Part shown: one piece after another, positions 2,047 to 49,130 of the stretch
Layout: each line of letters starts with the position of its first letter
How positions within the stretch are numbered: position 1 is the stretch's first letter
From: a phage
Length of the DNA: 64,000 nucleotides
Sequence record: PZ452594.1
Reading direction: 5' to 3' (one strand)
The notes under the pieces: generated by a model
What the model saw: only the letters and a program-made list of their open reading frames with translations
Database searches by the model: none
What the model was told of the DNA's origin: nothing
Program-made: the position numbers and the translations under genes

Positions 2047-2107
2047 ATATAAATACACTATATCCTTAATTCTTTAATTCTATATGCCCTAGGTTAAACA
2101 TAGGGGA

Positions 2108-44675: not shown

Positions 44676-45536
44676 TTACACCGCCATCTTTCCTTTAATA
44701 GGAGGGTGTGATTCATAGTTGTTAAGAACAAAATTATGCGGCTTTGCGAATTGACTCAACCAAAATACCTGCGATTCTGTGTCCCATTCATCAAATTCAT
44801 CTGGAAATTTTAATTGCAATTCGCATAAATCCATAGGTTCACGACGTAAAATTTCTTTACATTGTTCTACGTGATTCATATAGATATGAGTATTACCGCC
44901 AGAAAATATCAAATCTCCCGGAATAAGATTACACATCTTAGCTACAATATGAACTAACGTAGCATATGATGCAATATTAAATGGAAGACCGAGGAAAACA
45001 TCTACCGAACGTTGATACCACTGGAGGTCAAGGTATCCGTTACGAACATTAAATTGATAGAACATATGACAAGGCGGTAATGCCATATATTTAAGTTCAG
45101 CTGGATTCCATGCAGAAACAATTTGACGCCTATCATTTGGCAGTTTTTTAATACGATCAATAACTTCTATAATTTGGTCTACACCGCCAAAATCACGCCA
45201 CTGTTTTCCATAAATTGGACCAAGTTCACCGCTATGGTATCCTAAATCTTTTGCTTGATTTTCGTAATTTTCATCCCAGACTGTTTTGCCTTGGATTAAC
45301 GAATCATGCTGAATTAATCGTAAATCATTGACATTTGTGCTTCCTGACAAAAACCATATTAACTCAGCAATGCAAGCTTTCCAGGCGAGCTTTTTAGTTG
45401 TTACTGCAGGAAAACCTTTGGTTAAATCCCAACGCAATTTAGTACCAAACAAAGCAATTGTTCCTGTGCCTGTTCGGTCATCGGTTTCATAACCATTTTC
45501 AAAAATGTCTTTAATTAAATCTTGGTATTGTTTCAT
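44676..45536 (-). CDS. td: Thymidylate synthase (286 aa), uninterrupted
   Basis: Continuous 286-aa ORF with active-site PPCH motif ([11 protein letters not shown]) and DRR ([12 protein letters not shown]); no intron. Confidence 0.97.
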
Positions 45537-45580
45537 TTAGTACCTTATATAAATTATAATACATTTTATGAAGCTAATAA

Positions 45581-45928
45581 TCAATACGGTTTAGCATCAA
45601 ATTTTCTCTCAATTTCAGGCGTGAAATATAATTCTTTACCGCGTTTGGAAAAACGACCAATAATATGATAATTATTCTCATCAAACGTGATATTACCAAT
45701 ATTCATAGCTTTCAACCAAATATCGATATTTCTATCCAGCTTTATGTCAAAATTCCAGTACGGAGAACTATTACCGAAAATACTGCAAGCGGATTCAGTG
45801 AAACAACTGCTATAAATCTTGTCCTTAGGAACTACTAATTGATAGACACCTTTAATAAACTGAGGACCCTGCCATTTTGGTTGTTTCGTGTCTTTTTCTA
45901 ATAGAATAGGGTAATAATTAAAATTCAT
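45581..45928 (-). CDS. Hypothetical protein (115 aa from ATG; track 119 aa from GTG) inserted between frd and td
   Basis: ORF fills a 412-bp interval between frd stop and td start; no recognisable motif. Confidence 0.55.
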   Translation of the reverse strand: MNFNYYPILLEKDTKQPKWQGPQFIKGVYQLVVPKDKIYSSCFTESACSIFGNSSPYWNFDIKLDRNIDIWLKAMNIGNITFDENNYHIIGRFSKRGKELYFTPEIERKFDAKPY

Positions 45929-45948
45929 ATTTTCCGCCACGCGTTATT

Positions 45949-46771
<823 letters not shown>

Positions 46772-46787
<16 letters not shown>

Positions 46788-47131
46788 TGAAAGGGGCCAG
46801 AAGCAAATCCGCTATCTTTAATCATTTTAACTAAAGTTACCATTCCTCTGTTAACTGCTTGCGCGATTTCATCAAAAACTTCATCATTATCACCATAAAG
46901 ATCGCTAAAAAGTTCTAACACATTCTTCTGAACTTTTAATTTACAGCCAACAAATTCGCCTACAGTAAATTCGTTTCCGCCAACTCCAGCGTAAAACGTA
47001 ATTACACCAGTTAATGGTCTTTCACTAGAACATAGGTCGTGTGATAAATTAATATAAGCCGTCCCGGGTACAGTTTTAAGTTGGCAACGAATACTTACTC
47101 GAGCAATTCCAGCTACATGAATGTCAGACAT
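46772..47131 (-). CDS. Hypothetical protein (119 aa; frd.x cluster)
   Basis: ORF between frd and 32. Confidence 0.55.
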
Positions 47132-48221: not shown

Positions 48222-49130
48222 TTAAAGGTCATTCAAAAGGTCATCCAGGTCCGTGTCATCAGCACTAGATGAACTACCAGAGCTTGAGCTCATAAAATCA
48301 TCTTCAGTTTTTGTATTGAAGTCATCAACATTGAATGCATCCAAATCATCAGCAACTTTATCAGCTTTCTTAGCAGCAGTTGCAGCGGCACCACCCATAG
48401 CAGCAGTTCCCATAACTTGGCTGAACTTAGTGCTCAGTTCTTCAAATGATTTGAATTTATCTTTAGAAGTCATTTCAGAAAGGTCAACCATTTGTTCGAA
48501 CAGTTCTTTCTGGAAAGATTCATCATCAATGTTTGGAATCGCAGATTGATTCAGGAATTTAGATTCATCGTAGTTACTAAATCCGGAAACTTGTTTAACT
48601 TTCAGTACAAAGTTAGCACCTTCCCACGGACAAGTTACATCAACCGGAGTTTCACCCATTTCAACATCAACTGCAATCATTGCATTGATTTTATCCCAGA
48701 TTTTCTTACCAAAACGGTATTTAAATACTTTACCTTCGTTTTCTGGAGCAGCTGGGTCTTTTACTACAAGAATGTTAGCCCAGTAAGAAGTTTTACGTTT
48801 AACAAGACTGTACTCTTTATTGTCAGTGTTGTACAGATCATTTTTACTGATGTATTGACATACTGGGCAAGAATCGTAATCACCGTGGGTAGATGAACAG
48901 TTTTCAATATACCATTTACCATTTTTCTTGAAACCGTGATTTACAAGAATTGCGAATGGTGCTTGTTCATCATTTTTAGACGGAAGAAAACGAATTACTG
49001 CTTGACCGTTACCCGCATTGTCGAGTTTCAGTTTCCACTCGCCTTTATCTTCAGAAGAAAAACCACCTTTATTTCCAGCCAGTTTAGCCATTTGTGCAGC
49101 GAGTTCAGCAGTAGATTTACGTTTAAACAT
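48222..49130 (-). CDS. 32: Single-stranded DNA-binding protein gp32 (302 aa)
   Basis: N-terminus [17 protein letters not shown], zinc-binding H/C cluster, acidic Ser/Asp-rich C-terminus; A/U-rich leader upstream; strong terminator downstream. Confidence 0.97.

Follow-up and report, generated by a model that had tools for sequence, protein, structure and literature searches.

The seg and mob homing endonuclease genes of the T-even phages lie between conserved genes, in intergenic positions at which they are present in some genomes and absent from others. In phage T4, the frd and td genes overlap, as the original prediction had stated, in the sequence ATGA, and a single copy of the octamer AAATGAAA is found at that overlap. 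Hypothetical proteins called RB32ORF229c occur in T2, T6, RB14, RB32, RB33, RB51 and several hundred other Tequatrovirus genomes; their genes are placed between frd and td, and flanked by spacers, just as in the DNA analyzed here. This DNA, which we will call the window, is a stretch of 64,000 nucleotides from a phage (record PZ452594.1). Its frd-td interval contains an ORF for a 115-aa protein (Table 1), and the ORF list confirms the arrangement that had been read from the sequence alone, with an intact frd on one side and on the other a td that must lack an intron, since it forms one uninterrupted ORF. The original prediction saw in this segment a well-packed extra ORF, missing from T4 and inserted at the junction as accessory cargo. 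Good packing and absence from T4 are both borne out. The insertion itself is a different matter: our comparative analysis indicates that the ORF is very probably a genuine and old accessory gene of the T4-like phages (Straboviridae), and not a recent insertion.

Table 1. Positions of the main features around the frd-td junction, numbered along the window
Feature	Position	Strand	Basis
gene 32	48222-49130	minus	
frd (dihydrofolate reductase), 193 aa, intact, upstream neighbor	45949-46530	minus	
8-bp direct repeat AAATGAAA, upstream copy (end of frd)	45947-45954	minus	script check
Vestigial mini-ORF ATG-AAA-TAA (M-K-stop)	45944-45952	minus	sequence and T4 alignment
frd-td interval, 412 bp, containing the 115-aa ORF	45537-45948		
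20-nt spacer, frd stop to ORF start, AATAACGCGTGGCGGAAAAT	45929-45948	minus	sequence
CDS of the 115-aa protein, PHROG 1928 member	45581-45928	minus	ORF list, PHROG match
44-nt spacer between ORF and td	45537-45580	minus	
8-bp direct repeat AAATGAAA, downstream copy (start of td)	45531-45538	minus	script check
td (thymidylate synthase), 286 aa, intron-less, downstream neighbor	44676-45536	minus	

The minus-strand gene order of the region is gene 32, frd.3, frd.2, frd.1, a DUF7247 ORF, an 81-aa ORF, frd, the 115-aa ORF, td, nrdA.2, nrdA.1 and nrdA, with frd.3, frd.2 and frd.1 matching the Pfam families Phage_FRD3, FRD2 and DUF5417. The 115-aa ORF (protein start MNFNYYPILLEKDTKQPKWQGPQF...) runs from a conserved ATG at position 45928 to a TGA stop codon (45581-45583). 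The ORF finder lists a GTG located four codons upstream of this ATG (45940), which is unsupported as a start: the corresponding ATG of the Mosigvirus phage NHEP29 already lies across the end of frd, overlapping its stop codon, and the protein therefore includes nothing upstream of it. Alignment of the window to T4 reveals 416 extra bases bounded by the AAATGAAA direct repeat, and the two copies of the repeat lie 416 bp apart, which is the size of the extra DNA relative to T4; the boundaries anticipated by the original prediction are thereby defined, and T2, T6, RB14 and RB32 turn out to carry the ORF too. The ATG of the vestigial mini-ORF overlaps the frd stop codon exactly as does the td start in T4, where the frame reads ATGAAACAA (M-K-Q; ATG-AAA-CAA).

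The evidence that the ORF is a real gene comes from selection, homology and structure. In comparisons with NHEP29, T6, Lutter and FriedrichMiescher its dN/dS ratio lies between 0.054 and 0.086, which points to strong purifying selection, and the window and NHEP29 copies are separated by 30 synonymous and 11 non-synonymous differences. A tblastn search with the 115-aa protein yields matches in 581 phage records. The structure prediction that had been proposed as a check came out favorably as well, with AlphaFold2 (AF2) models reaching a pLDDT of 78.5 with 31 sequences, and a pLDDT of 92.1 with a pTM of 0.84 with 66 sequences. It could be argued, on the other hand, that the segment is a spacer providing td with a promoter and a ribosome-binding site, and that the ORF within it is fortuitous. 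The 44-nt spacer does contain a sigma-70-like match (TTGATT at 45579-45584, a 17-nt spacer and TATTAT at 45556-45561; 9/12 in the promoter scan), the Shine-Dalgarno sequence of td itself (AAGG, 45543-45546) and what we read as a MotA-box-like element (TTAGCTTCA), and in phage Lutter a promoter is annotated at the equivalent place. The promoter scan of the region as a whole shows no enrichment over shuffled sequence, which leaves a sigma-70-like promoter ahead of td as a possibility only. Selection and structure already refute the spacer interpretation, to which we attach a practically negligible probability: it would account neither for the dN/dS of 0.05-0.09 and the pLDDT of 92, nor for protein-level homologues with 26-47% identity across genera in the tblastn search, nor for the Mosigvirus copy, which retains the ORF and has lost most of the promoter-like 44-nt spacer. 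An explanation at the RNA level was likewise rejected, for the search disclosed neither an RNA family nor a stable structure; the sole Rfam match of the segment is to a fly lncRNA model and falls below threshold, and for both spacers the folding is no more stable than that of shuffled controls (z = +1.28 for the 20-nt spacer). In this shorter spacer, between frd and the ORF, the promoter scan picks up nothing that resembles a promoter, and the sole element is a weak Shine-Dalgarno-like GGA; lacking a promoter to itself, the ORF is presumably transcribed together with frd.

A main result of the comparison among Tequatrovirus genomes is that the ORF (hereafter A) is the majority allele at this junction and the T4 arrangement a rare state. 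The whole segment is present in about 355 of about 515-519 matching Tequatrovirus-type records (megablast, phage collection). In tblastn searches the protein appears with at least 90% identity in 363 records, including T2, T6, RB14, RB32, RB33 and RB51, and copies with 96-99% identity are encoded in more than 340 Tequatrovirus records. A second allele, consisting of a 68-aa ORF without a Pfam match (C; PHROG 9550), occupies the same junction in 137 records. The empty junction of the T4 type, which gives a one-piece match, is seen in about 25-32 records among the matches listed, and many of these are T4 itself, which makes up roughly half, or its laboratory derivatives. The Tequatrovirus junction is therefore found in one of three states: A only (the window, T2, T6 and the RB14/32/33/51 group), C only, or nothing (T4). 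As for annotation, the 2003 GenBank entry of T2 (AY310907) leaves the ORF unannotated. The original prediction had conceded that a universally conserved T-even core gene at this position would speak against it, and what we observe comes near to that situation: the gene is widespread and keeps the same slot, yet it is not universal.

The same slot is occupied well beyond Tequatrovirus, in at least eight other genera. The tblastn search returns 218 records from other genera with less than 60% identity, and eight distant loci were inspected: Entb_45 and PEi26 (Kanagawavirus), Mineola (Jiaodavirus), F48 (Marfavirus), Cronus (Roskildevirus), Moon (Moonvirus), CHI14 (Winklervirus) and STML-198 (Gelderlandvirus). 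The homologue lies directly 3' of frd at seven of the eight, usually overlapping its stop codon, and in Cronus a long-form paralogue is placed between frd and the homologue. Most of these loci feature, ahead of td, a second ORF of similar size that is a paralogue with the same motifs, and ORF C is also present in Entb_45 and F48. Three metagenomic relatives, among them the most distant one retrieved, are encoded between DHFR and TS as well, on contigs with the order gp32 ... DHFR ... TS ... NrdA, and one metagenomic contig displays the full array frd-A-B-C-td, with an A that is 63% identical to ours. All family members whose locus was examined are thus located between frd and td, often beside the paralogue B and the 68-aa ORF C. 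In the distant genomes, the identity of A to the window protein (31-43%) tracks the identities of the Frd (45-54%) and Td (69-77%) encoded beside it, the pattern expected of a fast-evolving gene that is inherited vertically. On the simplest account, an ancestral A-B-C array would have been reduced in Tequatrovirus, which retains A only, C only, or nothing.

Set against this background, T4 emerges as an atypical reference. When 135 kb of T4 sequence, the whole genome apart from the block of late structural genes at 78-112 kb, is translated in six frames, the HMMs of the family pick out no member (best E-value 0.19). T4 also lacks the DUF7247 ORF and the 81-aa ORF upstream of frd, both of which are present in the window and in distant relatives. 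A genome that is gene-poor around frd, without this gene and two small ORFs upstream of it, is a poor yardstick, and hence absence from T4 should not be read as insertion elsewhere. The state of td adds to this picture. A split td occurs in all seven of the empty-junction lineages examined (T4, G28, vB_EcoM_112, HY03, SG1, FL18 and F1), with an intron that begins 552 bp into td; in a spread sample of genomes, every intron-less td is accompanied by allele A or C, and an intron-less empty junction was not encountered in that sample. The ORF itself is not strictly tied to the td intron: genomes with A include some that carry the intron (T6, PST, ECO4, Lutter) and others that do not (the window, T2), and only the empty junction is intron-linked. 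Given that seven of seven empty lineages carry the intron, the empty allele looks like a derived, intron-linked deletion, and we infer that it arose once, in an intron-bearing genome, by deletion between the AAATGAAA repeats. Linkage to a mobile intron suggests that the empty junction may have spread along with it by co-conversion, although one shared haplotype, and not a series of separate events, may lie behind the seven-of-seven association. Insertion into a T4-like junction would explain the 8-bp repeats and the M-K-stop vestige just as well as deletion from a junction with A, and we read the direction of the change from the phylogenetic distribution only. More generally, the co-occurrence of intron and empty junction suggests that intron homing can drag the deletion of a neighboring gene through a phage population.

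In Mosigvirus the ORF does show some mobility. The junction is empty in RB69, and A is found in 14 Mosigvirus-type records (e.g. NHEP29, SF, PHB12, Shf125875, OLB35, PTK, AlbertHofmann, KMB38, F2 and JQD51). Between NHEP29 and the window, A displays 88% nucleotide and 92% protein identity, against 62% and 59% for frd and 75% and 82% for td. The frd gene of NHEP29 is RB69-like up to about 12 nt before its stop codon, and td becomes RB69-like again after about 30 nt. To judge by these identities and breakpoints, one Mosigvirus subclade has evidently gained the ORF laterally, in cassette-like fashion and on very short flanks. This transfer makes the notion of accessory cargo partly right for the Mosigvirus lineage, and the gene is also facultative among close relatives; what does not stand is the picture of cargo dropped into a conserved junction, given a majority allele that holds the same slot across genera.

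The original prediction had further hinted at an association with homing endonucleases, and the ORF could in principle encode, or travel with, such an enzyme inserting at the frd/td junction. A selfish cassette of this kind would explain a presence/absence polymorphism at so precise a junction, the direct repeat flanking the extra DNA with its leftover ATG-AAA-TAA, and the cassette-like Mosigvirus transfer, whose breakpoints fall some 12 nt into frd on one side and some 30 nt into td on the other; in addition, the BASEL phages FriedrichMiescher, AdolfPortmann and AlbertHofmann bear the annotation 'putative homing endonuclease'. The protein itself argues strongly against it. Pfam scans of 31 family members bring up isolated noise only (best stray E-value 0.04), with no GIY-YIG, HNH, LAGLIDADG, PD-(D/E)xK or other match, and among 66 family sequences there is no position at which an Asp, Glu, Cys or Ser reaches 70% conservation. 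The semi-conserved His26, found in 49 of the 66, is a Lys in the window protein. With 115 aa, the protein is smaller than any listed T4 seg/mob enzyme except a defective mobA remnant, its predicted fold is an OB-like barrel, and the ancient, diverged orthologues at this location have changed in step with the genes on either side. The annotation in the three BASEL genomes is thus unsupported, and the homing interpretation, lacking both a nuclease motif and conserved acidic, Cys or Ser residues, is largely refuted and in our view very improbable.

The 115-aa protein (13.7 kDa, pI 8.8) matches the PHROG 1928 HMM with an E-value of 1.2e-35, its residues 4-111 aligning with positions 2-125 of the 126 in the profile. 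The paralogue B and the long form match this PHROG too. A profile search of 1.84 billion representatives yields 52 clusters, with lengths of 95-148 aa except for four spurious repeat proteins and one 39-aa fragment; the four, giant proteins of the repetitive CarboxypepD_reg type, were rejected as family members. PHROG 1928 is therefore a small and phage-restricted family. In agreement with the initial impression of a product devoid of recognizable motifs, scans against Pfam, NCBIfam and PADLOC (defense systems only) return no match at E-values up to 10, and sequence searches of the PDB with the single sequence and with the family profile return no significant one, the best E-values (0.13 and 1.4) corresponding to unrelated enzymes. 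Membership by sequence in the SSB or RPA-type ssDNA-binding families was discarded on the same Pfam and PDB results, and a relationship with the neighboring FRD2 (PF03197) and DUF7247 (PF23905) families on hhalign probabilities of 0.2% and 0.3%. Neither Pfam nor NCBIfam has a model for PHROG 1928, and we found neither a solved structure of a member nor a second family copy elsewhere in the 64-kb window.

Conservation in this family is concentrated in a few positions. At least 70% of the 66 sequences agree at L9, Q16, W19, G27, Y29, G78, G91, F93, K95, G97 and F102; the window protein has Q16, W19, G27, Y29, G91, F93, K95 and G97, each kept in 57-66 of the 66, and all the motifs of PHROG 1928 (Q-x-x-W at the N-terminus, G-x-Y in strand 2 and G-x-F-x-K-x-G in the C-terminal hairpin). 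With neither acidic residues nor Cys or Ser conserved, and no match to a known family, it is unlikely that the protein is a nuclease or any other enzyme. The AF2 model predicts strands at residues 6-12, 27-34 and 62-64, a helix at 68-77, and strands at 80-82 (a short extra one), 86-96 and 99-104. Judged by the order of its secondary structure elements (b1-b2-b3-helix-b4-b5), the predicted fold would be a small, OB-like beta-barrel. Its structural neighbors in BFVD, retrieved with the model of pLDDT 78.5 as query, are all uncharacterized proteins of T4-like phages. The family has a median pI of 8.5, with 11 of 66 members below 6.5, and is hence not uniformly basic, which weakens the case for nucleic acid binding.

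The explanation that best accommodates these observations is that of an old accessory gene, encoding a non-enzymatic binding protein that is co-expressed with frd and td, and we assign it a probability of roughly 0.55. The detailed mechanism we put forward, an OB-like protein that is made with the frd-td transcript and binds without catalysis, is more tentative and rather less likely than not. The protein would be produced pre-replicatively from this transcript, having no promoter of its own and a start that overlaps the frd stop codon in most lineages, and would adopt a compact barrel of five beta-strands in the OB-fold order, in which a helix separates strand 3 from strand 4. It would then act by binding nucleic acid, a small molecule of the nucleotide or folate type, or a partner protein in nucleotide synthesis or replication. 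The contacts would be made by its sole conserved side chains, namely Q16 and W19 (loop following strand 1), Y29 (strand 2) and the F93 and K95 of the GRFxKxG hairpin. Such a protein would be conditionally useful and not essential, since T4 and RB69 do without it.

Two other functional interpretations draw on much of the same evidence. One is that of a small early protein involved in anti-defense or host takeover, which would bind a host factor or an immune signal (e.g. as a sponge) and whose position between frd and td would be merely historical. We deem this fairly unlikely. It is in keeping with a small, apparently non-enzymatic and presumably early-expressed product, with presence and absence among close relatives, with tandem paralogues that diverge quickly, with lateral transfer into a Mosigvirus subclade, and with strong purifying selection where the gene is present, combined with its dispensability in T4 and RB69; the conserved aromatics and Lys also resemble ligand-binding pockets. 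Nonetheless, the protein bears no similarity to any characterized protein, no characterized anti-defense protein figures among the matches of the PDB sequence and fold searches, and a slot that has remained fixed over many genera and a long time is unusual for counter-defense cargo with a fast turnover. The other interpretation takes the position at face value and proposes a partner of the thymidylate cycle, which would bridge or regulate DHFR and TS, or carry folate or nucleotide, within the dNTP-synthesizing complex of the phage. All examined loci do place the family between the DHFR and TS genes, its start commonly overlaps the frd stop codon and its stop the beginning of td or of the ORF that follows, suggesting coupled translation, and the conserved aromatic and Lys residues could bind folate or nucleotide. 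Start/stop overlaps are, however, the rule throughout T4-like genomes, and since these genomes are collinear, a conserved position says little about a functional link to DHFR and TS and synteny constitutes weak evidence; moreover, T4 and RB69 lack the family and yet carry out normal DNA synthesis. We therefore regard a dedicated thymidylate-cycle partner as unlikely, and retain the broader reading of an accessory binding protein co-expressed with frd and td.

In terms of discovery, the ORF matters little. The gene is already known, with hundreds of hypothetical-protein entries in GenBank and a PHROG of its own, and only the comparison with T4 makes it look like an addition. We found no literature mentioning the 115-aa ORF, RB32ORF229c or phrog_1928, including the reviews on T4 genome evolution and mobile DNA. 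The interest of PHROG 1928 lies rather in its being a clean target for functional work, as it is under constraint, has a confidently predicted fold, is restricted to T4-like phages and is without a Pfam model. In a bolder version, which we hold to be improbable, PHROG 1928 might constitute either an unrecognized non-enzymatic, OB-like component of the thymidylate cycle or dNTP complex, or a new counter-defense protein that sequesters a ligand, in both cases lost by T4. Were this true, its role could be that of a folate or nucleotide carrier or of an adaptor between DHFR, TS and gp32, and T4 research would have missed it only through the intron-linked deletion of T4.

When compared with the closest known systems, the window copy shows no difference of substance from the RB32ORF229c proteins and is simply another member of that group. 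The paralogues B (about 115-124 aa) and the long form (142-148 aa), absent from the window and from Tequatrovirus, belong to the same PHROG, reside in the same frd-td slot and share with the family of the window protein the motifs QKKW, HG(I/V)Y and GRFxKxGxxhxF, but they are only 20-28% identical to the window protein and contain an additional 'ALVxxGxxPTIxxYKRNP' insert after the conserved Trp. Among characterized proteins, the OB-fold domains that bind single-stranded nucleic acids, those of SSB, RPA, Teb1, PriB and the MCM N-terminal domain, count among the closest systems. Finally, while the 115-aa ORF resembles the seg and mob genes in its intergenic position, in its presence or absence between conserved genes and in its transfer on very short flanks, it differs from them in being much smaller and in having no catalytic motif or conserved acidic residues, and, apart from its presence or absence within Tequatrovirus and the one transfer into Mosigvirus, its occurrence across genera looks anciently syntenic, whereas theirs is sporadic.

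In all seven examined lineages that have the T4-type (empty) frd/td junction, at which the two genes overlap without any intervening ORF, the td group I intron is present, and its I-TevI gene is either full or truncated. Across a spread sample of Tequatrovirus records, an empty junction never occurred beside an intron-less td. Taken together, these two results suggest that the deletion hitch-hikes with intron homing.

The occupied junction also shows signs of exchange between genera. A Tequatrovirus-type copy of the 115-aa ORF (92% protein identity) lies within RB69-like flanks (Frd 59%, Td 82%) in a Mosigvirus subclade represented by Escherichia phage NHEP29 and a further 13 Mosigvirus-type records, and the frd/td junction of RB69 is itself empty. 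The breakpoints, which lie ~12 nt inside frd and ~30 nt inside td, indicate that the ORF reached this subclade through a discrete lateral transfer. Exchange between genera seems to have affected the frd/td region of Escherichia phage FL18 (PP400780.1) as well, since this phage is classed as Mosigvirus and its empty junction is 97.5% identical to that of T4, with an intron bearing a 168-bp truncated I-TevI remnant.

In most other genera the 115-aa protein gene adjoins tandem paralogues, which also belong to PHROG 1928 and are 20-28% identical to it; a longer subtype (142-148 aa) lies upstream of the 115-aa homologue in Erwinia phage Cronus and several metagenomic contigs. An alternative occupant, ORF C (68 aa, basic, MSNKLKV...GERSLGFTRKAK..., PHROG 9550, with no Pfam match), replaces the 115-aa ORF in 137 Tequatrovirus-type records. 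In Kanagawavirus, Marfavirus and the metagenomic contig L025, ORF C follows the 115-aa gene and its paralogue, immediately upstream of td. In Enterobacter phage Entb_45 an intact array of all three lies directly downstream of an frd annotated as two pseudogene fragments; either this DHFR gene is disrupted or the assembly is at fault.

The naming of the 115-aa ORF in several GenBank records is inconsistent and probably wrong. It is labelled 'putative homing endonuclease' in FriedrichMiescher, AdolfPortmann and AlbertHofmann, 'dihydrofolate reductase' or 'reductase' in APTC-EC-2A, ADUt and ECO78 (and probably the former in Kelasse, where dihydrofolate reductase is listed twice), and 'putative glucose-1-phosphate adenylyltransferase' in pSe_SNUABM_01, while the T2 entry AY310907 (2003) leaves it without annotation. 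It is likewise unannotated in Escherichia phage Pu-Krd-SF5 (PQ759885.1), where the tblastn match is split in two pieces, pointing to a frameshift or sequencing error.

Features at and around the frd/td junction (L numbers, retrieved loci)
Feature	Position	Strand	Remarks
Tequatrovirus-type ORF in Mosigvirus subclade	L015 1201-1548		NHEP29
Tandem paralogues	L004 2817-3173; L006 2790-3143; L008 2787-3134; L009 2814-3188; L010 2809-3156; L007 2059-2493
ORF C	L011 748-954		Shigella phage Sf21
ORF C, further copies	L003 3173-3379; L006 3226-3354; L025 3670-3879
frd annotated as two fragments	L003 2002-2516		Entb_45
Empty junction	L002 6110-6113; L026-L029 ~2058-2061		L002, T4; L028, FL18; also phages G28, vB_EcoM_112
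DUF7247 protein gene (119 aa)	window 46772-47131	-	Between frd.1 and frd; Pfam E 8e-31
81-aa ORF	window 46530-46775	-	Between frd.1 and frd; abuts frd start; no Pfam match

The DUF7247 gene and the 81-aa ORF found upstream of frd in the window are both absent from T4, yet distant T4-like contigs have both of them ahead of DHFR, and hence it is T4 that is gene-poor on either side of frd.
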